Shown: piece by piece, positions 34,732 to 51,721 of the stretch | How positions within the stretch are numbered: position 1 is the stretch's first letter | Layout: each line of letters opens with the position of its first letter | DNA from: Thermodesulfobacteriota bacterium | GTDB lineage: Bacteria; Desulfobacterota; BSN033; UBA1163 | DNA: 58,687 bases | Assembly: GCA_049684675.1 (NCBI GenBank) | Contig: JBAVGF010000308.1 | Span: 1-58,687 of the forward strand | Reading direction: 5' to 3' | Notes under the pieces: model-generated | The model's input: the letters and a program-made list of their open reading frames with translations, nothing else | What the model was told of the DNA's origin: nothing | The model's database searches: none | Position numbers and translations under genes: made by a program

Positions 34732-37700
34732 TGTCAAGAGTCGGTGTTTTTGTCTGCCACTGAGGAACGAATATCGCGTCCGTGGTTGACGTGAAGGCAG
34801 TGGTGGAAGCAGTCAAAGAATTTTCAGAGGTGGCTTATGCCACGGACCTCCCCTATACGTGCTCCAGCCAGGGGCAGGGAGTGATCAAGGACGCCATCCA
34901 AAAGCATCGTCTGGATCGAATAGTCGTTTCGTCCTGCAGCCCGAGGATGCATGAGATTACTTTTCAGCGGTGTATCGAAGCCGGAGGACTGAACCGGTAT
35001 CTCTTTGAAATGGCCAATATTCGAGAGCAGGTCTCCTGGGTGACCTTGGATAAAGAAGAGGCGACCCAGAAAGCAATCCGGTTGACAGAGATGGCTATCT
35101 CAAAGGCTTCACAACTTCAATCCCTGACACCGCTGAAATCTCCCGTAGAAAAACGCGTTTTGGTAATCGGAGGAGGTATCTCCGGCATTCAGGCTGCGCT
35201 GGACGTTAGCCTAGCAGGATACAAAGTCACTCTCGTGGAAAAACTTCCAACCCTGGGTGGGCGGATGGCCCAGCTGGAGAAAACTTTTCCGACCCTCGAC
35301 TGCTCTGCCTGAATACTTGCGCCAAGGATGACGGAGTCATCCAACGATGAAAATATTGAGATTCTTACCTACTCTGAAGTGGTCGATGTGAAGGGCTATG
35401 TGGGCAACTTCGATGTGACCATCCGAAAGAAACCCCGTTATGTGGATATGTCCAAATGCACAGCCTGTGCAGATTGTGTCAGCCAGTGTCCGGTCTCCCT
35501 TTCGAGCGAATTCAATCTGGGACTCGGAAAAAGAAAAGCGATCTATCTTCCTTTTCCCCAGGCGGTTCCTCTCAAATATACGATCGACCGACGCGGCACG
35601 CCTCCCTGTGAAGCTTCCTGCCCGATTCACGTCAATGCTCAGGGATACATTGCTCTTATCTCGGCGGGAAAGTTCGAAGAAGCCCTGGCACTGGTTAGGG
35701 AGAAGAATCCATTTCCGGGCATTACGGGTCGAATATGCACCCGTCCTTGCGAGGGAGCTTGCCGGAGAAAGGAAGTGGATGAATCGGTTGCCATTGACGC
35801 CCTGAAGCGTTATCTCTCAGACCATGACGAAAATGGGAAGATCAATGTTCCCATGCCTGAAGAAAATGGGAAGAAAGTAGCTATTGTAGGATCAGGGCCT
35901 ACTGGTTTGCTCGCGGCCCATGACCTGAGAAAGAAGGGTTACGGTGTCACCCTCTTTGAGGCTCTTCCCGTAGCCGGAGGGATGCTTGCCGTTGCCATAC
36001 CTGAATACCGGCTGCCTCGTACGATCCTGAACAAAGAGGTCGAATATCTTCTTGGAATGGGCGTTCAGTTAAAGCTCAATACCCCGATTGGCCCAGGCCT
36101 CTCCTTGAAAGACCTCAAAACTCGGGGGTATCAAGCCATCTTTGTCGCGACAGGGGCCCATCGGAGCAGAAAGCTTGGCCTCGAGGGAGAGAGTGCCCGA
36201 GGTGTCATCCATGCTGTCGATTTTCTAAAAAGAGTGGCTCTTGGTGAATCGGTGAAAGTAGGAGAGAAGGCGATTGTTGTTGGAGGGGGCAACGCAGCGA
36301 TTGATGCAGCGAGGACTGCGCTTCGTCTCGGTTCACGGGAGGTCACAATCGTCTATCGCCGAACCCGCAACGAAATGCCCGCTCAGATCGAGGAGATTGA
36401 AGAAGCCGAAGAGGAAGGAATTAAGATGGAGTATCTCACCGCTCCAACGCGACTGATCGTTGAAGAGGGAGCTGTTCGAGGAATAGAGTGCTGCCGGATG
36501 GAATTGAAGGAACTGGATGAATCCGGCCGACCCAGACCTGTGCCCATTCTTGGCTCTGAGTTTAGAATCGAAGCGGATACGATCATTCCTGCGATCAGCC
36601 AATCGCCTGATCTGTCTTTCCTTTCCGAAACGGATGGTTTCAGGATGTCCCCTTCGGGAACCATTGAAGCCGACGCTCTCACCCTTGAGACGGGTGTGGA
36701 AGGAATCTTTGCGGGGGGCGATCTGGTAACCGGTCCGCAGACATATATCGATGCCATGGCTGCGGGTCGAAAGGCAGCCATCTCCATTGACCGCTACCTC
36801 AAAGGAGAGGATCTGAACGAGGGCCGAGAAAAGGAAGGGACTCAGAAAGATTATATTCAAATCGATGTCGACGGAGTCGAATACCGAGAGAGGGCCTCCG
36901 TGGTGACCCTCCCCCCCGAAAGGAGAAGAAGAAGCTTTGACGAGGTGAACGCCGGCCTTCGAGAAGACGACGTGATCCGGGAGGCAGAACGCTGCCTCAA
37001 TTGCGGAGGATGCTCAGCCTGCGGAGAATGTTCAAAGTACTGTCAGCCCAAGGCCGTGGATTATGAGATGAAGGAGGAATGGGTTGAACGTAAAGTCGGA
37101 GCCATTATCGTTGCGACCGGCTTTACCCAGTTCGACCTTCGGATGTACGGAGAATATGGCGGAGGCCGCTTCAAGGATGTGATTACAGGTCTTCATCTGG
37201 AAAGAATGCTCGATAGTACGGGGCCTACCGGAGGCCATGTGATTCGGCCTTCCAATGGCAAGGAGGCGAAGCATATCGTCTTCATTCAGTGTGTCGGATC
37301 CAGGGACGAATCAAAAGGCGTTCCCTACTGTTCCAGGGTCTGCTGTATGTACACAGCGAAACAGACGATCCTTCTCAAAGACCATTTTCCAGAGAGCCAA
37401 TCGTATGTTTTCTATATTGATATACGGGCAAGCGGGAAGAATTACGAAGAGTTTGTCAAGCGAGCCCAACGGGAGTATGGAACGATCTATATTCGGGGGA
37501 GGGTTTCAAAAATTTATGAAAAAGGTGACAAGCTCATTGTCCGAGGGGTAGATACCTTAGTGGGAAAACAGGTGGAGGTTGAGGCCGACTTAGTCGTATT
37601 GGCCACCGCTGTCGTTCCCCAGGCCAGTGCCTCAGAGTTGGCGAGGCTCTTGAACATTCCCTCTGATCAATATGGTTTTTATACGGAGTGCCATCCCAAA

Positions 37701-38120
37701 CTTCAACCTGTCGAGGTGGTGACCAAAGGGATCTTCCTGACCGGTTCCTGTCAGTTTCCAAAAGATATTCCTGAATCCATCGCCACGACAGGTGCTGCCT
37801 CGGTCAGAGCCTGTGAGATTCTCTCCAAGGACGAATTGGTTCTCGACCCGAGAATTGCTTTTGTGGATGAGGAGGTCTGTAGCGGTTGTCTCAATTGTGT
37901 TGGAGTCTGCCCCTTCAAAGCCATCCAACCCAAAGAAGTTGAGGGGAAGATCGTTGCGTACGTCCTCCCTACGCTCTGTCACGGCTGCGGAAATTGTGCG
38001 GCCACCTGCCGGACAAGCGCTGCCAATGTCCAGGGGTTTACCGACGACCAGATCAACGCCCAAGTGGCTTCGGTCTTCGAGGTTCTCAGAAAGGAGCACC
38101 TCCTTGAGCTATCTGAATGA
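34731..38120 (+). CDS. hdrA: HdrA-like flavoprotein with an inserted GltD/NfnB-like NAD(P)H-oxidoreductase module (HdrL-type), two selenocysteines
   Basis: ATG 34731 overlaps the fdhA stop (TGATG). The gene uses one frame through TGA 34761-34763 and TGA 35310-35312 into track ORFs 34782.. and 35328..38120 (1129 codons). It reads MSRVGVFVCH-U-GTNIASVVD... and ...EKTFPTLDCSA-U-ILAPRM, matching the HdrA blocks IGV.ICHCG.NI and [15 protein letters not shown]. The GltD-like insert is at about 35589-36985. Confidence 0.85.
34761..34794 (+). other. UGA (Sec) codon plus SECIS-like hairpin
   Basis: TGA 34761-34763, then a 7-bp stem TCGCGTC/GACGTGA (one G-U pair) with loop CGTGGTT at 34774-34794. Confidence 0.55.
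35310..35342 (+). other. UGA (Sec) codon plus SECIS-like hairpin
   Basis: TGA 35310-35312, then GGATGAC-GGA-GTCATCC (7-bp perfect stem) at 35326-35342. Confidence 0.7.
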
Positions 38121-38661
38121 AAAGGGGATTCACGGCTTTAAGGATCGGATACTGAAGCTGAGCGGTGAGGATGTCTCCCGGTGCACCCAGTGCGGAAAAT
38201 GCACTGCCGGATGTCCGATCTCTCCAGAGATGGATCTTCAGCCGAATCAGGTGATTCATCTGATCCAAATCAATGACCCGGAAACCGTGCTCCGATGCCG
38301 AACGATATGGCTCTGCGCTTCTTGTCAGACCTGCTCTGCTCGATGTCCGGACGAGATCGATGTCGCACAAATTATGGATTCACTGAGAAAATTGGCAGTG
38401 GAAGAAAAGGTTTCAATCGGTGAGGGAAACGGAATGAAATTTAATGAGTTCTTTCTCGATTCGATTCGGAAGAGGGGGCGTGTCAACGAAATGGAGATAT
38501 TATTGCGTTATAATCTGGCCACCCATCAGCCCTTCAAAGATTCTCATCTGGGACTGGTGATGCTCGCCAAAAGGAAGTTAAGTTTTTCAAACCGTAAGAT
38601 TAAGGGAGTGGGTCTGATCAAAGAGATCTTTAAGAATAGTAGGCGATTCATTAAGGAATAG
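38104..38661 (+). CDS. hdrC: HdrC-like iron-sulfur subunit
   Basis: CTQCGKCTAGCP and CASCQTCSARCP motifs. Probable TTG start at 38104 with AAGGAG 7 nt upstream, overlapping the hdrA end. The upstream ~104 codons of track ORF 37792..38661 lie inside hdrA. Confidence 0.8.
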   Translation: MSYLNEKGIHGFKDRILKLSGEDVSRCTQCGKCTAGCPISPEMDLQPNQVIHLIQINDPETVLRCRTIWLCASCQTCSARCPDEIDVAQIMDSLRKLAVEEKVSIGEGNGMKFNEFFLDSIRKRGRVNEMEILLRYNLATHQPFKDSHLGLVMLAKRKLSFSNRKIKGVGLIKEIFKNSRRFIKE

Positions 38662-38665
38662 CGCC

Positions 38666-39523
38666 ATGCGGGTAGGATATTATCCAGGTTGTTCCCTTGA
38701 GAGCAGTGCAAAAGAGTTTGATCTCTCCCTTAGGGCGATCTTTGAGGTGATGGAGATATCTCTGCAGGAGATCCCCGACTGGAACTGTTGTGGAGCAAGT
38801 CCGGCTCACTCCCTCAATGAAGAACTTAGTATGGCCTTGCCTTACAGGAACTTGGTGAAGGCTGAAGAGGCCGGTTTAAGGAAGATTCTATCTCCTTGCC
38901 CTGCCTGCTATAGCCATATGAGACACACCCATGAAAAGGTAGCACTGGACCGTTCTCTTGGAGATCGACTTCAGCAGATTGTGGGAAAGGGATATCAAGG
39001 AAGTTCGGAAGCGAAGCATCTTTTGGACTTCATCAAGGAGGACGTCGGACTGGGACAATTGAAGTCGAGCATGAAGCGTTCTCTCAAGGGATTGAGAGTA
39101 GCCAGCTATTACGGGTGTCTGACACGGCTGCCCGGAGTAAACTTAGACGATGTTGAGAATCCGGTGATCCTAGATGAGATCGTGGGAGTCCTTGGAGGAA
39201 AATCACTTGACTGGTCTCATAAGACGGAATGTTGTGGGGCAAGTCTTTCATTGACACAGACAGAGATTGCCCTCAGGCTGGTCCGCTCTATTTTAGAAGC
39301 AGCTGAAGAGAAAGGAGCAGAGTGCATTGCCGTTGTTTGTCCCCTTTGCCAATCCAACTTAGATGCCCGACAGGGCGTCGTCTATAAGAACAAAATGCCC
39401 ATCTTCTACATCACGCAGTTAATCGGGTTAGCTCAGGGACTTGGCTATGCCAAGCTGGGGCTGGACGGACTGATCGTAAGCCCCCGTGACCTCCTTCGGA
39501 AAAGAGGGATCATCGAAAAATAG
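38666..39523 (+). CDS. hdrB: HdrB-like subunit (two CCG domains)
   Basis: 285 aa with YYPGCSL...NCCGA and YYGCLTR...ECCGA repeats, characteristic of the duplicated CCG domain. Confidence 0.85.
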   Translation: MRVGYYPGCSLESSAKEFDLSLRAIFEVMEISLQEIPDWNCCGASPAHSLNEELSMALPYRNLVKAEEAGLRKILSPCPACYSHMRHTHEKVALDRSLGDRLQQIVGKGYQGSSEAKHLLDFIKEDVGLGQLKSSMKRSLKGLRVASYYGCLTRLPGVNLDDVENPVILDEIVGVLGGKSLDWSHKTECCGASLSLTQTEIALRLVRSILEAAEEKGAECIAVVCPLCQSNLDARQGVVYKNKMPIFYITQLIGLAQGLGYAKLGLDGLIVSPRDLLRKRGIIEK

Positions 39524-39773
39524 AACCAGCCAACAGTGGATCCTCACAACTCATCAGTTAAGCTTGCAGTTGCAAAAAAACATTTCTAAAGGCGGTTAGG
39601 TGTGCTGAGAAAGCCTTACAGCGGAACCTTTTAGCAGTTTGCCACTATGCTTCCAACCACATTACAAAAGCCACATTGGGCGAAATTGCATATTACCCAT
39701 AAGAAATAGTAAAGAACCGGTTGGTAAGGGTTTTAGAAGTACACTCAACCGCCTTCTTATTGCAACATTAAGG

Positions 39774-40619
39774 TTAGATATCGTCAACGAGACTCCTGAT
39801 GACCTTCATATTTTTCAGGTCTTCGACAGTATCCTTCCTCGGGGTTTCCATAATCCCGGGGAGGTGCCTTAACAAAAGATGGTTGACCAGATTTCTAAAC
39901 CCTTCTAGTCCGATATATCCCTCACCAATATGCCAATGTCGATCTTTTCTCGACCCCAAAGGAGTCTTTGAATCGTTGAGATGGAGGAGATGGAGTCGTT
40001 TCAGGCCAATCGTTTGATCGAATTTTTCCAGGGTCCTATCCATTCCATTTTTATCAGAGAGGTCATAGCCCGCCTCGAAAGTGTGGGCGGTGTCGAGACA
40101 GACCCCCATTCTTTGATGGTCGTGAACTCCCTCTATGATTTTCTTGATCTGATCAAAGGTGTATCCGATCTCCGTCCCTTGTCCTGCCGTATTCTCCATG
40201 AGGAGAATGACCCCATTCTTCACCTTTTCAAAGGCCTGATCAATCCCCTGTGAGACGGCGTCAATGGCTTGATCTTCTGAGGATTCCATCCGGTGACCGA
40301 TATGCATGATCAGGTATTGGGCTCCCAGTTGTTCCGCCCTTTGAAGGTCTGTGGCGATGGAATGGATTGACCGTTTGTAGAATTTTGACTTGGAGGAAGC
40401 AATATTGGGTAGGTAGGGCATGTGGAGAAAGATGGGGAAAAGGACAGGGGATTGAATAGATGACCGGAATGCTTTTACCTCCCTCTTCTTCAGGGGAGAA
40501 TATTTCCATCCCCTCGGGTTTCTGGAGAATAACTGGATGGTTTCGCAGCCTCTGACATGGGCTCTTTCAACCACCTTTGAAAACCCTCCGGCAATGGAAA
40601 TATGGAACCCAAATCGCAT
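39774..40619 (-). CDS. nfo: Endonuclease IV (AP endonuclease, TIM-barrel)
   Basis: MRFGFHISIAGG, ENTAGQG and HLNDSK..GSRKDRH blocks align with E. coli Nfo. Confidence 0.88.
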   Translation of the reverse strand: MRFGFHISIAGGFSKVVERAHVRGCETIQLFSRNPRGWKYSPLKKREVKAFRSSIQSPVLFPIFLHMPYLPNIASSKSKFYKRSIHSIATDLQRAEQLGAQYLIMHIGHRMESSEDQAIDAVSQGIDQAFEKVKNGVILLMENTAGQGTEIGYTFDQIKKIIEGVHDHQRMGVCLDTAHTFEAGYDLSDKNGMDRTLEKFDQTIGLKRLHLLHLNDSKTPLGSRKDRHWHIGEGYIGLEGFRNLVNHLLLRHLPGIMETPRKDTVEDLKNMKVIRSLVDDI

Positions 40620-40719
40620 CGATGCCCCTTGAAGAAGGATTAATTGGAAGTTACAATAAGATATGTAAATGTTTCACCTATTGTCAATAAGAAATTGAAG
40701 GAAAAGTGTGATTTTTCGC

Positions 40720-40748
40720 TTGACAAAAGTAAGCGCTTAGTTTACGAC
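40720..40748 (+). promoter_or_regulatory. Candidate sigma70-type promoter for Fdh/Hdr cluster 2
   Basis: TTGACA at 40720-40725, a 17-nt spacer, then TACGAC at 43-48 of the same decade (40743-40748). It lies 77 nt upstream of ATG 40825. The -10 box is weak. Confidence 0.3.
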
Positions 40749-40824
40749 GGAAGCGTCCGAATAAAAAAATCCACAAGTGATTTAAGAGCCTTTTTCCCTC
40801 AGTCGAGTCAAGGAATATAGATTT

Positions 40825-42597
40825 ATGTTCCTCAGGGTTTCTTTATACATTTCGTCGGTCATTTTTCTGCTCGGTCTGATTTATAAGGTGGCCGGCTGGT
40901 TCCGATACAGGATCGGGATAAGGGCAGGAGAGATTTCAACCTTCACAAGGGTTCTTTCTGCCGTCAAGGGAATCCTCTCCACACTTTTCAGCGCCAAAAT
41001 TCTTACTCTGTTGAAAGTCTTTGTTCTCGATGTACTGCTTCAATTCAGGATATTGAGGGAGGACTTTCTCAGATGGATCATGCACATTTTTATCTACGGC
41101 GGTTTCATGCTTCTCCTCCTGATGCATGCCTTGGACAAAACCATCACCGTTGCCCTATGGAAAAACTATTACCCCACGGTCAATCCCTTTATGTTTTTGA
41201 GAGATCTATTCGGCGCCATGGTCATCGTTGGAGTGATCATTGCGATTTATCGCCGATTCATCTTGAAGGTGCCCCGGATGTTCAGCAATGCGATGGATGT
41301 TTATGCCATCCTCATCGTGGCCATCATTATGTTTTCCGGTATCTTTTTAGAAGCCACCAAAATGGTTGCCTATTCCGATTATAAGAGGATGGTGGATGAA
41401 TATTCTGGTTTGAGTGATCCCCAAGAGCTCAAGTCTTTGGAAGCCTATTGGGTGAAGGAATTCGGAGTCGTTTCCCCAAATTTGAAAGGGCCCTTTGATG
41501 AAAAGATATTAGGGAAAGGCAAAAAATTGCATCAATCGAGTTGTGAAGGGTGCCATGCCCGGCCCCAGTGGGCATTTACCGGTTATGGAGCGGCCAAGAT
41601 CATCAGCCCTATCGGTCTTGGCATTGACAGGGCCCGTCTGCCCAGTGTGCTTTGGTACATCCATGTCTTAGCCTGTTTGGCAGGTCTTGCTTATCTTCCC
41701 TTCAGCAAAATGTTCCATATCTTTGCCAGTTCGATAAGCCTCCTTGCCAATGGAGTAATCGGAAAAGAAAAATTGGCTCCAGCGAACAGAGCCACTCTCC
41801 AAGCGATGGAGCTGGATGCCTGCACGCATTGCGGAACCTGCAGTTTGAGGTGTTCGGTGATCATGGCCTTTGAAGAAATTGCGAATATGAATATTTTCCC
41901 TTCTGAAAAGATCGCCTCCCTCCAGGCGCTTGCCTCTGGTAAGAAATTGAGCCCGCAGGAGCTGGGGCATATTCAAGAGGGGGTCTATCTCTGTTCCAAT
42001 TGCTACCGTTGCACGGTGGTCTGTCCGGCAGGGATCAACCTTCAGGATTTGTGGTTTAGCGTCAGAGAGACTCTTCTTCAGAAGGGATACCCAGAAGTTC
42101 TCGTTCTCTCTCCGCTCTCTTTCTACCGTGGTTTAATGAAGGAAGAAACGGTTCCGAGAGATTACGAGAAGCCCTTGATCCAGGCGAGAGAGGCCATTGC
42201 CGCTCGATGTGATTTGATGAAGAGGAAGGATAAGGTCTTGCCTCTGACGTCCACGAATAGACAATTACAGAGCGGGCTCAATCTTTCTGCCCAGGCAAAG
42301 ACCTTCTCGGCTTGCTTTGGCTGTCAGACCTGTACGAACGTCTGTCCTGTGGTGGGCAATTATGAAAATCCTCAGGAAGCCCTTGGGCTGCTGCCTCACC
42401 AAATCATGCATGCGGCTGGTTTGGGCTTGAGGGATCTTGCCTTTGGGTCAAATATGCTTTGGGATTGTTTGACCTGTTATCAGTGTCAGGAACAATGTCC
42501 GCAAGGGGTCCACGTCACGGATGTGCTTTACGAACTAAAGAATTTGGCGGTCAAACGAGCGAGGGAGGAGATCCTGCAGCCCGTGGGAAGAAAATAA
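40825..42597 (+). CDS. Membrane cytochrome-b-like (NarI/DsrM/HdrE-like) domain fused to two HdrC-like 2x[4Fe-4S] modules, with a CXXCH motif in the large extracytoplasmic loop
   Basis: 590 aa with about six TM helices in aa 1-300. His pairs lie inside TM helices (MHIFIYGGFMLLLLMH; IHVLACLAGLAYLPFSKMFH). CEGCH is at aa 240-244 (nt 41542-41556). These are followed by CTHCGTCSLRCS / CSNCYRCTVVCP and CFGCQTCTNVCP / CLTCYQCQEQCP. Confidence 0.7.
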   Translation: MFLRVSLYISSVIFLLGLIYKVAGWFRYRIGIRAGEISTFTRVLSAVKGILSTLFSAKILTLLKVFVLDVLLQFRILREDFLRWIMHIFIYGGFMLLLLMHALDKTITVALWKNYYPTVNPFMFLRDLFGAMVIVGVIIAIYRRFILKVPRMFSNAMDVYAILIVAIIMFSGIFLEATKMVAYSDYKRMVDEYSGLSDPQELKSLEAYWVKEFGVVSPNLKGPFDEKILGKGKKLHQSSCEGCHARPQWAFTGYGAAKIISPIGLGIDRARLPSVLWYIHVLACLAGLAYLPFSKMFHIFASSISLLANGVIGKEKLAPANRATLQAMELDACTHCGTCSLRCSVIMAFEEIANMNIFPSEKIASLQALASGKKLSPQELGHIQEGVYLCSNCYRCTVVCPAGINLQDLWFSVRETLLQKGYPEVLVLSPLSFYRGLMKEETVPRDYEKPLIQAREAIAARCDLMKRKDKVLPLTSTNRQLQSGLNLSAQAKTFSACFGCQTCTNVCPVVGNYENPQEALGLLPHQIMHAAGLGLRDLAFGSNMLWDCLTCYQCQEQCPQGVHVTDVLYELKNLAVKRAREEILQPVGRK

Positions 42598-43526
42598 TGG
42601 AATTTGCCTTATTTCTCGGTTGTACCATCCCAGCCCGTCTCAATCAGTACGAATCTTCCTCTAGGGCTGTTCTCAAAAAGCTCGGGGTGGGATTGGTCGA
42701 TATCCGGGAATTTAACTGCTGCGGATATCCCCTGAGGAACATCGACTTCAAAGTATTCCTCCTCTCTTCGGCGAGAAATCTGGCCCTGGCCGAAAAGAAG
42801 AATCTGGATGTGATGACGTTGTGCCAGTGTTGCTACGGCAGCCTCAAAAAGGCAGACTTTCTTATGAAGGAGAATGCTACCTTAAAGAAAGAAGTCAATA
42901 CGACCCTCGAGAAAGAGGGTCTGAAATACGAGGGAAGGAGTGAGGTGAAACACCTCCTCTCCGTTCTTCACAAAGGAATAGGCATCGAATCGATCAAAGG
43001 GAAGATGTCAACGACCTTTAAGGGGCTTCGGATCGCCACCCATTACGGATGCCATGCCCTAAGGCCCAGCCAGGTTGTGGAATTTGATAATCCCCTTGCT
43101 CCTACCCTGTTTGATGAACTGGTTGAAGCGACCGGTGCTGAGAGCGTTGAATGGCAAATGAAACTCGAATGCTGCGGGGCTCCCTTATGGGGAATCAATG
43201 ATCAGCTGTCCATGGATTTGACTTTAAAAAAACTGAAGGATGGCAGGAAATCGGGTGCGGATTATATCTGTGCGGCCTGTCCATACTGCCACATTCAGTT
43301 CGACAAGGTCCAGAAGATGATACTCTCTCAAAGGAATGTGAACCACCCTCTTCCCTCCATTCTCTATACACAGCTTCTTGGCCTGAGCATGGGCGTCGAC
43401 AAGAAGGCCCTTGGATTGGAGATGAACGAGATTCGTATCGGCGGGATTGAAGAATTATTAAAGAGTGAAAGAGATTTAGCCGAGGAGAAAGAAACCAAGA
43501 AGGAGAAAGAATCAACAAAGCAGTAG
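42597..43526 (+). CDS. HdrB-like CCG-domain protein
   Basis: The real start MEFALFLGCTIP at 42597 overlaps the upstream stop (TAATG). FNCCGYP and LECCGAP CCG motifs. Lys/Glu-rich C-terminal tail. The track's start at 42459 is an out-of-context extension. Confidence 0.8.
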   Translation: MEFALFLGCTIPARLNQYESSSRAVLKKLGVGLVDIREFNCCGYPLRNIDFKVFLLSSARNLALAEKKNLDVMTLCQCCYGSLKKADFLMKENATLKKEVNTTLEKEGLKYEGRSEVKHLLSVLHKGIGIESIKGKMSTTFKGLRIATHYGCHALRPSQVVEFDNPLAPTLFDELVEATGAESVEWQMKLECCGAPLWGINDQLSMDLTLKKLKDGRKSGADYICAACPYCHIQFDKVQKMILSQRNVNHPLPSILYTQLLGLSMGVDKKALGLEMNEIRIGGIEELLKSERDLAEEKETKKEKESTKQ

Positions 43527-43556
43527 TTTTTTCGATCGTTGAAGGCAGGAGTCAAG

Positions 43557-46500
43557 ATGACACAGAATAGGATCGGTTCAGTCATGGTGGTCGGTGGGGG
43601 CATCGTCGGGATGCAGGCGGCATTGGATCTTGCCAATTCCGGCTATTATGTCTACCTTGTGGAGAGGTCCTCCTCCATCGGTGGTTTGATGTCCCAATTG
43701 GACAAGACCTTCCCCACCAATGACTGCTCCATGTGAATCCTCTCGCCCAAACTGGTCGAGGTCGGCCGGCATCTCAACATTGAGCTTCTCACCCTCTCCG
43801 AGGTGATAAGCGTTTCCGGGGAAGAGGGAAATTTTGAAGTAAAAGTGGTTCAATCCCCGCGCTATGTGGACATGGCGAAATGCATTGCCTGCGGTCTCTG
43901 CGCTGAAAAATGCCCGACCAAAATCGACAATGAATATGATGCGGGCCTTGCTAAGCGAAAATCGATCCATGTCAAGTACGCCCAGGCCGTTCCTCTGAAG
44001 TATACCATTGACCCGGCAAATTGTATCTTTCTTACCAAAGGGAGATGTAAGGTCTGCGAGAAACTCTGTCCTGCAAAGGCCGTCAATTTCGAAGATAAGG
44101 AAAGAGAATTGACCTTCCAGGTCGGGGCCATCATCCTCTCCACCGGATGCGAGGTTTACGATCCGAAGGTTTATGATGTCTATGGTTACCAGCGCTCCCC
44201 CAATATCGTTACGAGCCTTGAATTTGAAAGAATGCTTTCTGCTTCCGGACCCCTTGGCGGACATCTGGTAAGGTCTTCTGATAAAAAGGAACCCAAAAAA
44301 ATCGCCTGGATTCAGTGTGTGGGTTCGAGGGATATGCACGAAGGAGCGAAGGCTTACTGTTCGGCAGTTTGCTGTACCTACGCCATCAAAGAAGCTCTGG
44401 TTGCAAAAGAGCATGCGAAGGGGGGACTCGATACTGCCATCTTTTACATTGATATGCGTACCTTTGGCAAGGATTTTGAGAGATACTATAACCGGGCCAG
44501 GGAAGAAGCCGGTGTCCGTTTCATCAAATCAAGAATCACCCAGATTTTTCCGATGAGTGATACAGGGGATCTTCTCATTCGCTATACAGACGAGGCCCAG
44601 AAAAGAATTGAAGAAACATTTGATATGGTGGTTTTATCTGTAGGAATTGGCGTCTCCAAGGAAGCGGTAGACTTGGCCAAAAGATTGGATATTGACATTA
44701 ACCACCATCATTTTGCTTCCACGGGCAGCTTTGAGCCTGTTTCAACCTCAAAGCCTGGCATCTTTGCTTCGGGAGCCTTCCAAGCCCCCCAAGATATTCC
44801 TTCCGCCGTAATCGAGTCGAGCGCCTCTGCTGCTATGGCAGAAAGTATCTTAGCCGATTCCCGTTGGACCATGACAAAGAAAAAGGAAATCCCCGAAGAG
44901 ATCGATGTCCGCGGCCAATTCCCCAGAATTGGCGTATTTGTCTGCAAGTGCGGGACAAATATCGCTGGTGTCTTAGATGTATCCGCCATTGCCGAATATG
45001 CTCGGACCCTGCCAGGTGTTATTTTTGCGCAGGAGAATCTCTTTAGCTGCTCTCAGGATACTCAAGAGAAGATGGCCCAGATCATTAAGGAGGAGAAGCT
45101 GAACCGGGTGGTGGTTGCTGCCTGCAGTCCCCTGACCCATGAAGTTCTCTTTCAGGAGACCGTGGTCAATGCAGGCATCAATAAGTACCTCTTTGAGATG
45201 GCGAATATTCGCAATCAATGTTCCTGGGTGCACGGCGGGGATGCAAAGGCCGGCACAGAGAAGGCTAAGGATCTTGTGCGCATGGCTGTGGCGAAAGTCG
45301 CTTTATTCGAACCCATGTCTGATCCCCGAATCACCATTAACCAGACAGCCCTGGTCATCGGCGGTGGGCTTGCAGGCATGAGCGCTGCCAAAAACCTGGC
45401 GGCGCAAGGCTTCCGTACCTGTTTAATTGAAAAGGAAGGGGTCTTGGGAGGTCAGGCTCGAAATTTATATCAAACCTGGAAGGGGGAGAATGTTCAACAA
45501 AATCTGGCGAAACTCGCTCAGGAGGTTCAATCTAATCCGAAAATCGATGTCTACTTGAACACCGAATTGAAACAGGTGGAAGGATTTGTGGGCAATTTTG
45601 AAGCCACCATTCAAACGGATGGAAAAGAGAAGGTATTGGAGCACGGTATCGCCATTGTTGCAACGGGTGCTTCGGAGCTAAAACCCGATCAATATCTCTA
45701 CGGAAAGGATCCCCGTGTTTTGACCAGACTGGAGTTGGACGGTAGATTTATAGAAAATGACGCCTCCCTGGGAAAGATCCGTTCAGCTGTTTTTATTCTG
45801 TGTGTGGGATCGCGAATCAAGGAGAGGCCCTACTGCTCCGAGGTGTGTTGTACCCACTCTGTCGTGAGTGCACTCAAACTGAAAGAGATCAACCCCGATA
45901 TGGATGTCTTCATCGTTTACAGGGATATGCGGACCTTTGGACTGTTCGAGGATCTTTATCGTGAAGCCCGGGCCAAAGGAATATTTTTCATCCATTATGA
46001 TGAACATAAAGAGTTAAAAGTCGCGAAGGATCAGAATGATCTTCAGGTTCTCTTCACCTCCCGTGTGCTGAACCGCGAGATGGAGATTCGGCCGGACTTA
46101 TTGATCCTGGCCACGGCCATCGTGCCACCGAAGGAGAACTCTATTTCAAACTTGTTCAAGGTTCCAGTGAATAATGATGGTTTTTTTGCTGAAGCCCATG
46201 TCAAACTTCGACCCATCGATTTTGCCACGGACGGGGTTTTTCTCTGTGGCCTCGCCCACTCTCCGAAGCCCATGGATGATTCGATTGCCCAGGGTCTGGG
46301 CGCTGCGGCGCGGGCTGTGACGCTCCTCTCTCAGAAGGAGATGTACGGCAATGCCATTGTGGCCTTCATCAATCCGGAAAGCTGTGTGGGCTGCGAGGGA
46401 TGCTTAAAGGTCTGTCCCTATGAAGCCATTCGATATTTAGAAGATAAAGAAATCTGCGAGGTCAACGAGGTGATTTGTAAAGGGTGTGGGGCCTGTGCGG

Positions 46501-46586
46501 CTACGTGTCAATCGGCTAGCGCACAGCTCAAGCGTTTCACCAGCAAACAGATCTACGCTCAGATCGACAAGGCCATGGCTGTCTAA
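43557..46586 (+). CDS. hdrA: Tandem HdrA-like flavoprotein (two HdrA units in one polypeptide), one selenocysteine
   Basis: ATG 43557 has AGGAG 6 nt upstream. It shares a frame with track ORF 43803..46586 through TGA 43734-43736. It reads [17 protein letters not shown]...[18 protein letters not shown]. The first unit has CVGSRD..YCSAVCC. The second unit starts at [15 protein letters not shown] and has [26 protein letters not shown] and a C-terminal 2x[4Fe-4S]. Confidence 0.85.
43734..43760 (+). other. UGA (Sec) codon plus SECIS-like hairpin
   Basis: TGA 43734-43736, then CTCGCC-CAAACT-GG(T)CGAG (6 bp with one bulge) at 43742-43760. Confidence 0.5.
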
Positions 46587-46613
46587 ACAAAAAAACGGAA
46601 AAGGGAGTTTTTG

Positions 46614-47045
46614 ATGTCAGAGGAGTTTCGACCCAAGATCATTGCTTTTTTGTGCACCTGGTGAGCTTATGCTGCCGCTGACCTGGCTGGGGTCAGTAGA
46701 ATGCAGTATTCGACATCGATCCGGGTCATTCGGGTGATGTGTGCCGGGACGATATCACCTCATTACGTCCTGAAGGCCTTGCAGGCGGGGGCCGACGGCG
46801 TCTTTGTGGCTGGCTGACGTCTCGGCGAATGTCATTACCAGTCTGGTAATGTGATGGCCAACAAAAGGATGACCTTTTTGAAGAAGTTGCTGGAGTTTTC
46901 TGGCATTCACCCGGAGCGCCTTAGAACGAGATGGGTCTCTTCTGCCGAGGCGGTGGAATTCGTCCATGAGGTTTCAGCGTTTGCGGAGGAGATTAAAAAG
47001 TTGGGGCCGAATCCTTTGAAAGTGAAAGCAAAGGAAGCCGCTTAA
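46614..47045 (+). CDS. mvhD: MvhD/FlpD-like protein with two selenocysteines (U17, U68)
   Basis: ATG 46614 has AAGGGAG about 7 nt upstream. It shares a frame with track ORF 46851..47045 through TGA 46662-46664 and TGA 46815-46817. It reads [79 protein letters not shown]. Confidence 0.85.
46662..46696 (+). other. UGA (Sec) codon plus SECIS-like hairpin
   Basis: TGA 46662-46664, then CTGACC-TGGCTGG-GGTCAG at 46678-46696. Confidence 0.65.
46815..46851 (+). other. UGA (Sec) codon plus SECIS-like hairpin
   Basis: TGA 46815-46817, then CATTACCA-GTC-TGGTAATG (8-bp perfect stem) at 46833-46851. Confidence 0.75.
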
Positions 47046-47052
47046 TAATTAA

Positions 47053-47136
47053 TAAGGTTAAGGTCGAGGTTCAGGCTGAGATTGGGGTAAATTGAAGGTC
47101 GAGGTTGAGGTGATGAATGATTTCCGCTTAACCTTA
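47053..47136 (+). repeat. Intergenic insert with a 10-bp inverted repeat and a 12-nt direct repeat
   Basis: TAAGGTTAAG (47053-47062) is the reverse complement of CTTAACCTTA (47127-47136). AAGGTCGAGGTT occurs at 47060-47071 and 47095-47106. The equivalent mvhD / Fe-S gene gap in cluster 1 is only 8 nt. Confidence 0.5.
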
Positions 47137-47168
47137 GCTTGATCCTAAACCTTAAGTGAAATGAAGGA

Positions 47169-47966
47169 ATGATGGGCACGAAGATTAAAGAAGCTGTTCA
47201 AGCTCTCCTGATGGAAGGGAAGATCAAGGGCTTTCTGGGTCTAATGGAAGAGAATGGCAACATCATGCCGCACCTCTTCTGCGATCCCAAGGAGCTTGAT
47301 CACCTCTCTGTGGGTGATTGGAAGAAAGCGGGCGACGCCCGTTATCCCCTGAATCAATTGATGATTCGATTAACCACGGAACATCCCGAGGAGACGTTTG
47401 CGGTTCTTATTCGGGGTTGTGATGAAAGGGGACTCAAAGAACTCTTCAAGTGGAAACAGTTGAACGAAGAGAAAGTCATCCTCGTAGGACTGGGTTGTCC
47501 GGATGAGCTGGCCAAGGCTTGTGAATGCGAAAAACCATTTCCGGATAGTCTGATAGAGGGTCCAAAGGGAGCAAAGGCAGACAGCGAGAAAGTGGCTCAG
47601 GTCGAGGCCATGGACCTGGACACAAGACTCCAGTTCTGGAAAGCGGAGTTTGACCGGTGCATCAAGTGTTTCGGCTGCCGCAATGTCTGTCCGATGTGCT
47701 TCTGCAACGAATGTTCCCTGGAGGAAGATCAATTGGTCGGGACGGGAGAGATCCCCCCTGCCAACCCGACCTTCCATCTGGCCCGGGCCATTCACATGGT
47801 GGGTCGCTGCATTGATTGCGGTTTGTGTGAGGAAGCTTGTCCGGCGGATATTCCTCTCAGAACGCTTTATAAGAAGGTGGCAGAGATTATCCACAAGGAA
47901 TTCGGATATAAGACGGGCTTCAGCGTGGATGAAAAATCGCCCTTCAATATCATTGAGGTGAGATAA
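47169..47966 (+). CDS. Iron-sulfur protein with two CxxCxxCxxxCP-type clusters, copy 2 (paralogue of 31651..32457)
   Basis: 265 aa with CIKCFGCRNVCPMCFCNEC and CIDCGLCEEACP motifs, in the same position between mvhD and fdhA. Confidence 0.7.
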   Translation: MMGTKIKEAVQALLMEGKIKGFLGLMEENGNIMPHLFCDPKELDHLSVGDWKKAGDARYPLNQLMIRLTTEHPEETFAVLIRGCDERGLKELFKWKQLNEEKVILVGLGCPDELAKACECEKPFPDSLIEGPKGAKADSEKVAQVEAMDLDTRLQFWKAEFDRCIKCFGCRNVCPMCFCNECSLEEDQLVGTGEIPPANPTFHLARAIHMVGRCIDCGLCEEACPADIPLRTLYKKVAEIIHKEFGYKTGFSVDEKSPFNIIEVR

Positions 47967-48007
47967 CAATTCGGTTTTTCGAAATGGAACGGAATAAAAT
48001 CTCTTTT

Positions 48008-48173
48008 CCCCGCCAAAGGCGGGGCTTCCAAATTTTTAGAATGTGGGTTTTTTTATATTTTATAGTATTGAAATAAAGGAATGAATGAGACGCTGGATTA
48101 CTATTGAGGCAGTTTGAATGACTCGGTAAAAGGTTACCGCCCTAAAAATTTTCCAGTCCCGTCTTTGGCGGGA
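48008..48173 (+). repeat. Inverted-repeat element between the Fe-S gene and fdhA-2; each arm contains a CCCGCC/GGCGGG hairpin
   Basis: Left arm CCCCGCCAAAGGCGGGGCTTCCAAATTTTTAG (48008-48039). Right arm CCTAAAAATTTTCCAGTCCCGTCTTTGGCGGGA (48141-48173). AAATTTTTAG/CTAAAAATTT pair across a ~100-nt AT-rich centre. Confidence 0.55.
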
Positions 48174-48232
48174 TCGGTGTACCGTTGGGGACATTTTGCG
48201 AAGCGTTAAGATGTACGAGGTGAAATAGCTTC

Positions 48233-50302
48233 ATGGAATTCAAGACGGTGTTAACCACTTGCCCCTATTGCGGGTGCGGATGCGGATTGCTCCTGGAGGT
48301 CCTCGACGGAAAGATCGTGGGGACGCTACCTTCCAAAACCAGTCCTGTGAACCGGGGGAAATTGTGTGTTAAAGGCTGGACCGTCCATGAATTTGTCACG
48401 AGCCCCAACCGATTGACCCAACCCATGGTGCGGAAAGGCGATGCCCTACAAGAGGCCTCGTGGAACGATGCGCTCAATCTTGCGGCGGCACGCCTGAAAG
48501 AAATTAAAGAAAAATACGGTCCGGATAGCATTGGTGTCTTAACCTCTGCCAAGTGTACCAATGAGGAAAACTATGTTTTACAGAAGTTTGCCCGGGCCGC
48601 CATCGGGACGAATAACATCGACCACTGTGCCCGTCTCTGACACTCCTCCACGGTGGCCGGGCTGGCCGCAGCACTTGGCAGCGGGGCAATGACCAACTCC
48701 ATTGAAGAGATTGAAGGGGCGGATTGTATCTTGATCATCGGCTCCAATACTTCCGTAGCCCATCCCCTCATCGCCACCCGTGTCTATCGAGCCAAAGCCA
48801 GAGGAGCCAAAATAATCGTCGCAGATCCTCGCAGGATACCGATTGTCCTTCAAAGTGATTTACACCTTCGTCAGAATCTCGGAACGGACGTGGCACTGAT
48901 CAACGGTCTGATGCACATCATTCTGAAGAATGGCTGGCAAGACCAGGCCTTTATCGATGAGAGGACAGAAAACTTTGAGCCACTGAAAAAGGTGGTTGAG
49001 AATTATCCTCCTGAAAAGGTATCGGAAATCACAGGGATCCCGACGGCCGATCTGGAAAAGGCAGCAGAATACTATGCCAAGGCTGAGCGGGCGAGCATTC
49101 TCTACACCATGGGCATCACCCAGCACATCACGGGCGTGGACAATGTCAAGACCCTTGCCAATCTGGCGATGCTCACCGGAAATCTCGGGAAGGAATCGAC
49201 AGGCATCAATCCTCTCCGGGGACAAAACAATGTCCAGGGTGCCTGTGACATGGGCGGGTTGCCGAATGTTTATACGGGTTACCAGGCAGTGACCGACCCT
49301 GCGGTTCGACAGAAATTCGAGGAGGCATGGGGAGCTAAACTTTCAGACAAGATTGGGTTGACCGCAACGGAAATGTTTCCTGCTGTCCTCGACGGGAAAA
49401 TGAAAGCCGTCGTCATCCTGGGTGAGAATCCCATGGTGAGCGATGCCGATTGCCGTCACATAGAAAAGGCGCTCAAGGCCCTCGATTTTCTCTTAGTGAT
49501 CGATATCTTCAATACTCCCACTTCGGATCTGGCCCATGTGGTTTTGCCCGGAGCCGCTTTTGCAGAGAAAGAGGGGACGTTTAGCAACACGGAAAGAAGG
49601 GTTCAGTTACTCCGAAAAGCAGTGGAGCCTCCCGGGGCGTCGAAACCAGACTGGCAGATCATCCAGGAACTGTCGAGCCGTTTTGGTTATGCCATAGATT
49701 ATGCTTCGCCCCGTGCTATCATGGAGGAGATTGCAAAGCTTACCCCATCTTATGGCGGCATCACTTATGACCGACTCCAAGGCGATGGGTTGCAGTGGCC
49801 CTGTCCCAACGCCGAACATCCCGGAACCAAATTTTTGCATCAGGGACGATTTTCCAGAGGGAAGGGCTTGTTTACCGCAATTGAATACAAACCCGCCGCG
49901 GAGACGGCGGATGAAGAATATCCCTTCCAACTCACCACCGGAAGGGTTTATGTCCATTACCACACGGGGACGATGACGAGAAACTCTCCTTCGCTGGAAC
50001 GGGAGATCAGTGAGTGTTTTCTTGAAATACATCCTGAGGACGCTGCTGAAATGAAAGTGGCGGATGGTGATTGGGTGGTCATCGCATCAAGGCGCGGGTC
50101 CGTCTCATCCCGTGTGAAGGTGACGGATGCCTCAGGGAGAAAAACAGTGTTCATGCCTTTCCACTTCCTTGAAAGCAGAGCCAATATTTTGACCAACCCC
50201 GCGTTGGATCCCATTGCCAAGATCCCGGAATTTAAGGTCTGCGCCGTAAGAATCGAAAAGATGGGAACAGAATCGAAGCCTTCTCCTGCCTCGGCCAGTT
50301 GA
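48233..50302 (+). CDS. fdhA: Formate dehydrogenase catalytic subunit (Mo/W-bis-PGD), selenocysteine-containing, cytoplasmic type, copy 2
   Basis: Track ORFs 48233..48640 and 48653..50302 share one frame and join through TGA 48638-48640. The junction reads [30 protein letters not shown]. N-terminal CPYCGCGCG motif. By eye about 60% identical to copy 1. No Tat signal. Confidence 0.9.
48638..48669 (+). other. UGA (Sec) codon plus SECIS-like hairpin
   Basis: TGA 48638-48640, then GTGGCC-GGGCT-GGCCGC at 48653-48669, at the same position as the copy-1 hairpin but with compensatory base changes. Confidence 0.65.
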
Positions 50303-50572
50303 TCAGGCGTGCCGGAATCTGGGGCCTCTTAGCCAGGACCGGATCGATTGGTTATCCGCCAGAATCTCCTCTTCTTGCAAAAAGGAATCCTTGGGAAAGG
50401 TCGCATGCGGTGAGATAAATCTCCCTTGCGGCCTTCAGCTGCGAATCGATGGGGTGCCGGTTAGGAGGGCGATACCCGAAACGAGAATGGAGATGTTAAG
50501 AGAATGGAGGAGGGGTTTAGATCGATTTGCGCCAATGTCCCCGCTGGCACAGAGATTGTGGGGAGCGGTCCG

Positions 50573-51721
50573 TTATGGAGCCGCTAAAGATCCCGTGACG
50601 AACCCCGCCATCGCTCCGCGATTTTTCAGGGACCGTTCTCTCTTCCTTTGCGAAAAATCAAGCACCATTCTTTGGAGCTTGATCAGGTCAGCCCTGGCTT
50701 TTTCACTCGATGAATATCTCCTCTCTTTGACGTAGCCAGCCCTAAGGGCTCCCCGGTAAACCATCTTCCCTCTTTCGGACCTGAGCAGCACGGTGGTATA
50801 TCCCTCCGGAGAACCAAGCCCTCCAAAGGAGATATCCGAGAATTCAGCGGAGAAATCAGGGCACACTAAACAGGCTGGCCGCGCAATGGAGTCGATCTCC
50901 TCAAAGGGGATGTGGATCACCCTGCCATTATTCAGGTAAATAAGGAAGTCCTCCTTCACATTAACCTTTGACACGTGGGCTAAATCAAATCCGTACTGTT
51001 TCTCCAGATGCCTCAGCTGTATGTCATTGAAGGAGAAGTTCTCCATGCAGAAAAGGCCGAAGCAGTACTTGATCACATCGGAGGGAATGATTCCGAGAAC
51101 CTGCATCTTTCGGACGGTATGGATCTGGCAAGGGGTTCCGACCATGGCCACCCGATCGATCACGCCCTTCCGCAAACTCTTGAGCTCTTGCATGGCAGGG
51201 GAATAGGTGGAGTACTGGGAACCCAGCTCGGCGATAGAAAAGGATTCGTCATAATGGGAACCTGAAGCAGAGACGACCTCCTCTCCTGAAGTGGCAAGCA
51301 CCGGACCTCTATGGAAAGGGCCATCGCTCTTAGAGACCAGCGCGCCATCGATCATATGGTTGTCCAGGAGATAGAGAAGAAGGGAAGTCACCACTCCCCC
51401 ATCCGTACACCTTTCACCTACGGTGGAATTTGTGGTCTGGGCGGATACCAGGTCCTTTATCGGGCCAATGGGAGGTTCCCATTTCGTCTTTTTTTTCAGC
51501 TCCTCGTCGAGATCGCGAATATTGGGGCAAATCATGTAACAGATTCCACACTTGAGGCACTTCTCCTCATCCACAAACACAGGCATTCCGTCCGGCCCCA
51601 CTTTCAGCGCCCCGAGGTTGTCAGCAGAACAGAAGGAAACGCAGCCTCCGCACTTCCCGCAAAAATTGTATCTCTGAACTTCTTTTTCCAAATCATGAAA
51701 CGTCTTGACCTCAGAGCCCAT
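50573..51721 (-). CDS. FrhB/FdhB-family protein (coenzyme F420 hydrogenase/dehydrogenase beta-subunit-like flavo-iron-sulfur protein)
   Basis: 382 aa. N-terminal 2x[4Fe-4S] ferredoxin motifs CGKCGGCVSFC and CLKCGICYMICP, followed by an FrhB-like body. Convergent with fdhA-2. Confidence 0.7.
   Translation of the reverse strand: MGSEVKTFHDLEKEVQRYNFCGKCGGCVSFCSADNLGALKVGPDGMPVFVDEEKCLKCGICYMICPNIRDLDEELKKKTKWEPPIGPIKDLVSAQTTNSTVGERCTDGGVVTSLLLYLLDNHMIDGALVSKSDGPFHRGPVLATSGEEVVSASGSHYDESFSIAELGSQYSTYSPAMQELKSLRKGVIDRVAMVGTPCQIHTVRKMQVLGIIPSDVIKYCFGLFCMENFSFNDIQLRHLEKQYGFDLAHVSKVNVKEDFLIYLNNGRVIHIPFEEIDSIARPACLVCPDFSAEFSDISFGGLGSPEGYTTVLLRSERGKMVYRGALRAGYVKERRYSSSEKARADLIKLQRMVLDFSQRKRERSLKNRGAMAGFVTGSLAAP

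Follow-up and report, generated by a model that had tools for sequence, protein, structure and literature searches.

In the solved formate dehydrogenase (Fdh) complexes of methanogens, FdhAB-MvhD-HdrABC (7BKB, 8RVU, 9T1S), an FdhA with selenocysteine (Sec) or cysteine stands together with the FdhB dicluster, MvhD, an HdrA that carries a bifurcating flavin adenine dinucleotide (FAD), HdrC and HdrB. In Geobacter metallireducens the BamDEF module contains BamE, a fused HdrA dimer with a Cys59-Cys62 redox pair in which only the TrxR1 flavin is bifurcating (K280), and BamF, an MvhD-like protein with Sec19 beside its cluster; the high-potential electron passes via an HdrBC-like subunit towards the menaquinone pool (bioRxiv 10.64898/2026.04.10.717634). 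The MetVF-HdrCBA-MvhD complex of Sporomusa ovata, a methylene-tetrahydrofolate reductase, has a 101-kDa HdrA with two flavins, only one of which has bifurcation residues. It is membrane-associated and reduces a quinone analogue, and its membrane link has been explicitly marked as unknown. The present study deals with a cluster of six co-directional genes (cluster 2, positions 40825-50302, plus strand) in contig JBAVGF010000308.1 of a Thermodesulfobacteriota bacterium (assembly GCA_049684675.1), the whole 58,687-nucleotide stretch of which is called the window here. An earlier note on this DNA had taken the cluster for a hybrid of an Fdh-MvhD-HdrA bifurcation module and a Qmo/DsrMK/HdrDE-like membrane module, and this general idea was borne out. 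In our reading, to which we give a probability of about 0.6, cluster 2 would encode one membrane-anchored, selenium-dependent complex. By flavin-based bifurcation or confurcation this complex would exchange electrons among formate/CO2, ferredoxin and a wire of haems that spans the membrane. It is best read as a reversible link, the membrane haems of which would serve menaquinone or cytochrome c.

Each part of the predicted complex is of a known kind and has a relative that has been solved or characterised; the overall architecture, as read from the genes, differs from that of all the systems with which it was compared. The set that would distinguish it is a membrane cytochrome-dicluster-HdrC chain, a separate HdrB, a fused HdrA, a CxxCH motif in a loop of the membrane protein and a swappable Fdh or MetVF partner. 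The scores against Hdr, QmoC, DsrK, TmcB and HmcF all stayed under the curated equivalog thresholds. The combination had not been recognised as a described complex, and a search of the full-text literature likewise found no published description of it; an earlier mention in Pereira et al. 2011 (Front Microbiol 2:69) or Appel et al. 2021 (BBA 1862:148379) is possible. The identities of the six genes were confirmed by Pfam, NCBIfam and PDB matches. Intergenic gaps across the cluster are 0-123 bp, with the exception of 266 bp located 5' of fdhA.

The last gene, fdhA (48233-50302), encodes a 689-aa selenoprotein that scores 877.9 bits against TIGR01591 (cut-off 666.25), which identifies it as a formate dehydrogenase alpha subunit. 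It has the Pfam domains Molybdopterin, Molydop_binding and Molybdop_Fe4S4 and the active-site motif ...CARL-U-H.... Its N-terminus, MEFKTVLTTCPYC, has no twin-arginine leader, and FdhA should therefore be cytoplasmic. The gene before it (47169-47966) encodes a 265-aa Fe-S subunit, the PDB matches of which are FdhB structures (9t1s_M, E 1.4e-31; 8rvu_E, 2.6e-29; 7bkb_E, 1e-23); its residues 154-258 align to FdhB 276-377. Only Fer4-family Pfam domains are present, the flavin/F420 domains FrhB_FdhB_N and FrhB_FdhB_C being absent, and the protein is read here as a truncated FdhB (FdhB') in which the C-terminal dicluster part is kept. The mvhD gene (46614-47045) encodes a 143-aa [2Fe-2S] adaptor with a Pfam FlpD score of 176.6 bits and two Sec residues. 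FdhA, FdhB' and MvhD together correspond to the input arm of the methanogen Fdh-MvhD-HdrABC complexes of known structure. The bifurcating Glu/Lys pair, the HdrC motifs and the CCG cysteines of HdrB (9 of 10 invariant) of methanogen HdrABC are likewise found here, whereas the equivalog scores stay under their cut-offs. The cluster departs from the methanogen complexes in that its FdhB lacks the F420/flavin domains, its HdrA is a permuted fused dimer, and its HdrC shares one chain with a dicluster domain and a membrane cytochrome. A bacterial host is not expected to make coenzyme M or coenzyme B.

Four in-frame TGA codons occur in the cluster and are selenocysteine codons, not frame breaks, because all four positions alternate with TGT/TGC cysteine codons in homologous loci. 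Among 80 related loci, the ratio of TGA to Cys codons was 30:27 for hdrA codon 60 (43734-43736), 34:14 for mvhD codon 17 (46662-46664), 25:23 for mvhD codon 68 (46815-46817) and 19:5 for fdhA codon 136 (48638-48640). The proposal of a double-Sec MvhD thus held at both of its sites. A match to SECIS_3, a selenocysteine insertion element, follows the fdhA TGA at 48635-48693 (E 2e-9, under the gathering score). Folds of the 60 nt downstream of each TGA contained hairpins, and their z-scores were not significant. The Sec assignment is based on the alternation of TGA with Cys codons and on the SECIS_3 match.

The hdrA gene (43557-46586) encodes a 1009-aa protein with one Sec, two FAD/TrxR units (Pyr_redox/FAD in Pfam) and ferredoxin domains; its HdrA2 score is 969 against a cut-off of 1100. 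It aligns to HdrA of Methanothermococcus thermolithotrophicus (5odc_A) in three permuted pieces. Residues 10-379 correspond to 147-510 of the 5ODC chain (TrxR-FAD with the inserted ferredoxin domain), residues 455-626 to 3-174 (N-terminal cluster domain) and residues 869-1004 to 510-647 (C-terminal ferredoxin domain). The N-terminal half has C57-x-x-U60, E224 and K278, and the C-terminal half has a second TrxR unit with D728 and V770. E224 and K278 are the counterparts of E356 and K409 of M. thermolithotrophicus HdrA, the pair by which the S. ovata paper recognises a bifurcating HdrA flavin. E224 was invariant in 53 homologues and K278 in 51, and the D728 and V770 positions vary across the family. 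By this pattern only the N-terminal flavin of the tandem HdrA keeps the bifurcation Glu/Lys pair, the second flavin being clearly non-bifurcating as judged by its residues, and the protein is read as a fused pseudo-dimer of the BamE kind. The likeness to BamDEF extends to single residues, K278 corresponding to BamE K280, C57-x-x-U60 to Cys59-x-x-Cys62 and U17 of MvhD to Sec19 of BamF. However, the BamBC tungsten reductase, BamGHI and any AOR-family gene are absent from the cluster, HdrB and HdrC are separate where BamD is fused, and the high-potential branch would be hard-wired to a membrane cytochrome instead of passing through a soluble electron transfer flavoprotein (ETF) and the ETF:methylmenaquinone oxidoreductase (EMO). 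The cluster is not a class II benzoyl-CoA reductase, and the likeness of its HdrA and MvhD to BamE and BamF is confined to architecture. It was also observed that some hdrA homologues (in L045, L049, L050, L051, L053, L056, L070-L072, L078 and L080) carry an insertion of about 1.4 kb at residues ~165-173, within the inserted ferredoxin domain. At the same site the HdrL protein encoded elsewhere in the window (34782-38120) appears to carry a GltD/NfnB-like NAD(P)H domain, which hints at an extra pyridine-nucleotide input in these versions.

The first gene of the cluster (40825-42597) encodes a 590-aa protein, referred to as the membrane subunit, with a NarI/HdrE/EMO-like domain (residues 1-312), dicluster domain 1 (317-420) and an HdrC domain (464-578). 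Membrane anchoring of this protein had been proposed earlier, and five hydrophobic helices, four invariant histidines and the best fold match all agree with it. Hydropathy and an AlphaFold2 model place the helices at about residues 2-27, 81-102, 121-146, 156-181 and 272-312, with two connecting helices after helix I and a 90-residue four-helix loop between helices IV and V. The model had a mean predicted local distance difference test score (pLDDT) of 75.6 when 73 more diverse sequences were included in the alignment; a shallower alignment of 35 sequences at 68% identity or more gave a mean pLDDT of 53 and was unusable. In Foldseek the best PDB match was EtfD of Mycobacterium smegmatis, a membrane ETF:menaquinone oxidoreductase (9OJN, E 1e-4, probability 1.0), and HdrC chains (8RVU) came next. 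The Pfam family Nitrate_red_gam matches residues 78-189 at 23.4 bits, a marginal score against the cut-off of 22.9, and the match is clearer (33 bits) in proteins of sister loci. In 62 full-length genome copies and in 52 representatives at 30-60% identity, H87 and H101 of helix II, H280 and H298 of helix V and 16 Fe-S cysteines were invariant or nearly so. The 18-residue spacing of H280 and H298 is that of NarI and of H233/H251 in EMO of Syntrophus aciditrophicus, the haem ligands of which are H87, H233 and H251. The histidine pattern of the membrane subunit is thus the NarI/HdrE pattern, with two predicted b haems, and the Pfam score, the five helices and the two histidine pairs would all place the protein among NarI/HdrE/DsrM-type di-haem cytochromes b.

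Beyond the membrane domain, Pfam finds two Fer4_8 dicluster stretches, which had been described as two HdrC-like modules. This holds for the second, since residues 464-578 are a true HdrC (PDB HdrC, E 9e-15; TIGR03290, 86.4 bits against 160) with two CX2CX2CX3C motifs, the cysteines of which are invariant among aligned homologues. The first, however, is more like diclusters of the SdhB/DsrK/GlpC type than like HdrC, and it scores with SdhB, GlpC, DsrK, TmcB and HmcF-type domains. The CCG motif of the fused HdrD, DsrK and EtfD proteins is absent from the membrane subunit and is found in the separate HdrB.

The loop between helices IV and V carries a CxxCH motif, C240-E-G-C243-H244 (41542-41556, plus strand). 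C240, C243 and H244 were each 100% conserved in the 62 aligned full-length genome copies. Of the scanned 50%-identity representatives of full length (at least 500 aa), which reach down to 34% identity, all but one had a CxxCH near the same position. Together with the motif, M189 and W209 were invariant in the 62 copies and the 52 representatives, and the CxxCH and M189 are conserved across 30-94% identity. The loop should face the periplasm, because the Fe-S domains that follow helix V are cytoplasmic and helix V spans the membrane once. The motif is therefore a candidate site of a covalent haem c with methionine as distal ligand on the periplasmic face, and the outward partner may be a cytochrome c and not quinone alone. 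A weak PDB match of the membrane subunit to a flavocytochrome c haem subunit (E 0.17) was also seen. Coupling to the membrane quinone pool, as put forward in the earlier note, stays one option, but a periplasmic cytochrome c is pointed to at least as strongly.

The haem c reading is strengthened by five sister loci (L070-L074, at about 7500-11640), since these carry fused multihaem cytochrome c domains. In them the membrane subunit is split over several genes. A 6-haem cytochrome c comes first, followed by a protein of about 720 aa with a Ni_hydr_CYTB domain, a seven-CxxCH cytochrome c7/c3-like domain and a NarI-like domain that lacks the loop CxxCH, and then by a separate 292-aa dicluster plus HdrC protein; in L074 these genes lie at 7744-8592, 8600-10756 and 10759-11634. 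In two of the five (L073 and L074) the genes for HdrB, HdrA, MvhD, the Fe-S protein and FdhA are still present and are 75-85% identical to the window. The same core thus seems to use anchors that differ in the number of c haems offered to the periplasm, and the architecture of the sister loci hints at a connection with electron transfer in the periplasm or outside the cell. A CxxCH embedded in a NarI-type cytochrome, and its multihaem replacement in the sister loci, appear undescribed in the literature searched. As a further variation, four rare members of the family (P0167, P0178, P0217 and P0219, about 710 aa) join the CxxCH membrane domain to one dicluster domain and two CCG motifs in an HdrD/HdrF-like manner.

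In its general plan, in which a NarI-like domain of five helices with conserved haem histidines leads into a dicluster domain in the cytoplasm, the membrane subunit agrees with the class that comprises HdrDE, DsrMK, EMO (EtfD) and HdrF. It differs from this class in the separate CCG protein, the added true HdrC and the invariant CxxCH loop, and its partner is HdrA/MvhD instead of ETF, GlpAB or DsrC. The DsrK, TmcB and HmcF equivalog scores are far under the cut-offs. An identity with HdrF was rejected, HdrF of Desulfobacterium autotrophicum being a fused transmembrane-HdrC-HdrB protein adjoining glpAB or etfAB. QmoABC likewise has two HdrA-like units, an MvhD-like domain, an HdrC-like dicluster and a NarI-like di-haem membrane domain. 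Unlike in QmoABC, the HdrA units are here fused, MvhD is separate and HdrB is present; the QmoC score (NF038018) is 75.3 bits against 300, and no apr genes (aprBA) were found in the window neighbourhood examined, so that the cluster does not qualify as QmoABC. In QmoC the Fe-S domain precedes the membrane domain, whereas here the order is reversed and the membrane domain is N-terminal. TmcABCD, HmcABCDEF and CbcL of Geobacter also combine periplasmic c haems, a membrane cytochrome b and a cytoplasmic Fe-S/CCG protein, and CbcL resembles the sister loci in its Ni_hydr_CYTB and 7-haem domains. In contrast to them, the cluster has a single putative haem c in a NarI-type loop, together with a cytoplasmic HdrA bifurcation module and a dehydrogenase.

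The hdrB gene (42597-43526), the ATG of which overlaps the upstream stop codon (ATGA), encodes a protein with two CCG domains (Pfam CCG twice, 89 bits). It is read as a canonical HdrB and aligns over its full length with the methanogen HdrB 5odc_B (E 2e-62), and its score against TIGR03288 is 256.8 bits, the cut-off of 345 not being reached. Nine of the ten motif cysteines were invariant in all aligned homologues; the tenth, C79, was Cys in 55 of 75 homologues and Gly in 20, possibly through an alignment offset. A rival reading is that, as in HdrABC and DsrMK, the high-potential acceptor is a disulfide or trisulfide on a protein or small molecule, for example a carrier like DsrC, and that HdrB reduces it. 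In that case the cytochrome would be a second input to the HdrB site, fed by menaquinol or cytochrome c, and not a bifurcation outlet. The near-complete cysteine set and the full-length match to methanogen HdrB speak for such a disulfide reductase. In BamD and EMO the distal cluster or the substrate pocket is altered, unlike in the HdrB here; dicluster domain 1 resembles the N-terminal domains of DsrK, TmcB and HmcF; and DsrC was proposed earlier as the partner of Hdr-like complexes of Syntrophobacter. However, neither the cluster nor the examined syntenic loci contain a gene for a DsrC-like protein or a thiol carrier, and members of the family are also found in Syntrophaceae-like genomes, a group not known to reduce sulfate. 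The HdrB score lies well under the curated equivalog cut-off (257 against 345 bits), and HdrB-like domains serve as pure electron relays in EMO and BamD. On balance a disulfide reductase is considered unlikely, though it keeps some weight.

In the preferred reading of a membrane-anchored bifurcating complex, the cofactors of the parts are given by homology and the wiring between them is inferred. Formate would be oxidised at the Sec-Mo/W site of FdhA, and the electron pair would pass through FdhB' and the [2Fe-2S] cluster of MvhD to the N-terminal FAD of HdrA, where it would be bifurcated. The low-potential electron would leave through the ferredoxin domains of HdrA to ferredoxin. The high-potential electron would go to HdrC (with HdrB), on to dicluster domain 1 and through the proximal to the distal haem b, and from there to menaquinone or, via the covalent loop haem c, to periplasmic cytochromes. 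The whole chain would be reversible, and in this Syntrophales-like, presumably fatty-acid-oxidising host the physiological direction may be the reverse, in which reduced ferredoxin and menaquinol or cytochrome c would together reduce CO2 to formate. Formate oxidation had been suggested as the direction, but oxidation and CO2 reduction are not to be told apart from the sequence. The potentials are about -430 mV for formate/CO2, -500 mV for ferredoxin, -75 mV for menaquinone and -200 mV for methylene-tetrahydrofolate (methylene-THF). Given these textbook values, the oxidative direction would be strongly exergonic and the reverse feasible only at micromolar formate, as in syntrophy. A CO2-reducing role in which menaquinol or cytochrome is re-oxidised is plausible, because the window has acyl-CoA and 3-hydroxyacyl-CoA dehydrogenase genes and the nearest relatives are labelled Syntrophaceae. 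The two genes in question (27970-30938, minus strand), one of them for a 601-aa acyl-CoA dehydrogenase with an Acyl-CoA_dh_C extension, lie just upstream of a second Fdh/Hdr cluster of the window (cluster 1) and are consistent with a fatty-acid-oxidising (syntrophic) lifestyle.

A simpler scheme would be that the complex is a non-bifurcating cytoplasmic formate:menaquinone (or cytochrome c) oxidoreductase, with HdrA and MvhD acting as a mere wire and no ferredoxin involved. The step from formate to menaquinone is exergonic by itself, the MetVF-Hdr system of S. ovata gave no co-reduction of ferredoxin or NAD(P)+, and of the two HdrA flavins the second is clearly not of the bifurcating type. Against this, two marks of bifurcating HdrA and BamE, the Glu/Lys residues and the Cys-x-x-Sec/Cys pair, are kept at the N-terminal flavin in every homologue, and both ferredoxin-type HdrA domains are retained. 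A 1009-aa selenoprotein together with a double-Sec MvhD would also be costly as a wire, and we regard this scheme as quite improbable.

The conservation of the cluster was followed in a genome scan that gave 80 loci, all from metagenome-assembled Thermodesulfobacteriota/Deltaproteobacteria. These span Syntrophaceae, Desulfobacteraceae, Desulfatiglandales and Syntrophobacteria, the nearest being 85-90% identical. The membrane core is common among uncultured relatives of the sulfate-reducer and syntroph kinds. A cultured or named member was sought, and all 80 loci and all named matches were metagenome-assembled genomes; the scan patterns came from close relatives, so that more distant copies in isolates may have escaped it. 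Down to 43% identity the core genes stand in the same order (membrane subunit-hdrB-hdrA-mvhD), and in 41 of the 80 loci the contig holds all four of them. Such strong synteny supports the view of the earlier note that the genes form one unit. Fdh does not stand as a defining partner, as the same core adjoins MetVF in many loci. Among the 41 loci, FdhB' and FdhA are near the core in 18, MetV and MetF directly follow mvhD in 11, both partners are near the core in one and neither is within reach in four; in the other seven the contig is too short for the partner to be seen. MetVF was found in nine further partial loci as well. The MetV-like (MIVAERKP...CNECVTVC) and MetF-like genes stand directly after mvhD in, among others, L025, L027, L035, L046, L048, L055, L077 and L078, and are often followed by response-regulator, ACT-domain and histidine-kinase genes. 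Since the partner is either Fdh or MetVF, the conserved unit is the four-gene core with an exchangeable dehydrogenase, and the core would thus be a general platform. The MetVF-HdrCBA-MvhD complexes of acetogens (Moorella thermoacetica and S. ovata) share MvhD, HdrB, HdrC and, in S. ovata, a two-flavin HdrA with this platform; they differ in that none of their subunits has transmembrane helices and in that the partner in the window is Fdh.

The notion that fdhA and the FdhB-like gene are neighbours of a separate membrane subunit-hdrB-hdrA-mvhD unit, which could draw on the 266-bp spacer 5' of fdhA with hairpin arms resembling bidirectional terminators and on the many loci in which the core occurs without Fdh, is very improbable in view of the six genes being contiguous in more than 15 genomes, the 8-bp distance between FdhB' and fdhA in the nearest relatives, the adjacency of Fdh even where the gene order is permuted (L050, L051, L053, L056 and L063) and the MvhD-FdhB-FdhA arm, which is structurally established as docking on HdrA in methanogens.

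The hairpin in this spacer (48009-48172) belongs to an inverted-repeat element of about 170 nt, with arms of 31 nt that are 84% complementary, a fold z-score of -4.0 and the core TCCAAAKTTTTAGA ... CTAAAAMTTTT. A second copy lies at 32487-32632 in cluster 1, also between the Fe-S gene and fdhA. The close relatives L002-L008 lack the element, and their junction is only 8 bp long. It was found in at least 120 metagenome contigs (L081-L200), mostly between co-directional genes; only 6 of the 120 carry Fdh/Hdr genes, and the flanking genes are otherwise unrelated. Among 108 distinct copies the mean identity was 62%, and the outer stem is kept through many compensatory double substitutions. A scan of the whole window against Rfam at the gathering threshold gave no match, nor did the element match in E-value mode. 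A riboswitch for the molybdenum or tungsten cofactor (Moco/Tuco) was considered and rejected for want of an Rfam match and in view of the unrelated neighbours elsewhere. The element is a dispersed intergenic repeat inserted here and not a part of the enzyme module. It could be a repeat like miniature inverted-repeat transposable elements or repetitive extragenic palindromes, or an undescribed structured RNA, and its terminator-like arms might affect the expression of fdhA in this genome. It was further observed that the spacer between mvhD and FdhB' (47046-47168) contains a short direct repeat, AAGGTCGAGGTT, twice. A promoter and terminator consensus scan of 39400-51000 gave counts not above those of shuffled sequence and was uninformative.

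A number of points weigh against the proposed bifurcating complex. No Pfam cytochrome c family matches the CxxCH loop, and the placing of this loop in the periplasm rests on an inferred NarI-type topology. There are two HdrC-like domains to be wired together with one HdrB, and since HdrB keeps the full cysteine set, a thiol/disulfide substrate could be the real high-potential partner. The hairpin repeat, with arms like those of a terminator, stands between fdhA and the remaining five genes here and could uncouple the transcription of fdhA, and every member of the cluster family found so far is a metagenome sequence. Lastly, thermodynamics does not call for bifurcation in the oxidative direction, since the transfer of electrons from formate to ferredoxin and menaquinone together is strongly exergonic. 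For the MetVF versions, by contrast, the confurcation of electrons from ferredoxin and menaquinol is the thermodynamically natural direction.

It should be mentioned that the window contains a related locus, cluster 1 (31175-39523, plus strand), which consists of mvhD (one Sec), an FdhB-like gene, the repeat, a Sec-containing fdhA, HdrL (an HdrA with the apparent insert, one Sec), hdrC and hdrB, as identified from translations only. It is of the soluble Fdh-HdrL type of D. autotrophicum and corresponds in part to Sfum_0819-0824 of Syntrophobacter fumaroxidans. The two clusters had been described as carrying a duplicated module; mvhD, the Fe-S gene, the inverted repeat and fdhA do occur in the same order in both, but the inverted-repeat element is independent of the module. 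The two FdhA proteins, judged by eye to be about 60% identical, are 60.3% identical by measurement and the Fe-S proteins 45%. Because identity is only 45-60%, the paralogy of the clusters appears to be old and not the outcome of a recent duplication. As to its borders, cluster 2 is preceded by an endonuclease IV gene on the opposite strand and followed by a convergent gene (50573-51721, minus strand) for a 382-aa FrhB/FdhB-family protein with two 4Fe-4S clusters and the domains FrhB_FdhB_N and FrhB_FdhB_C. The latter was considered as a seventh subunit and rejected, as among the related loci it is conserved in L002 only.

The membrane-subunit family is large, with at least 2,931 clusters at 90% identity and 177 at 50% identity (E of at most 1e-30), and the named matches among those listed carry only the labels '4Fe-4S dicluster domain-containing protein', 'hypothetical protein' or 'HdrC/nitrate reductase gamma'. 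A large family under generic annotation only is a concrete target that can be tested. We tentatively propose, at somewhat less than even odds, that the four-gene core is a widespread and so far unrecognised membrane-integrated bifurcase, in which the high-potential branch would cross the membrane via two b haems and a loop c haem and the Fdh and MetVF heads would be swappable. In such a naturally occurring construct, HdrC would physically tie a bifurcating module of the HdrA type to a transmembrane haem wire, with either Fdh or MetVF as partner. If this is true, bifurcation or confurcation would have a direct coupling to the pool of quinone or of periplasmic cytochromes, and thereby to proton-motive force or extracellular electron exchange. 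Two long-standing questions are touched by this, namely how methylene-THF reductase is linked to the membrane and how syntrophs lift electrons from menaquinone to formate or H2. The core, if it works in this way, would provide the missing membrane link for methylene-THF reductase in Desulfobacterota with the Wood-Ljungdahl pathway, and in syntrophs that for formate-forming reverse electron transport.

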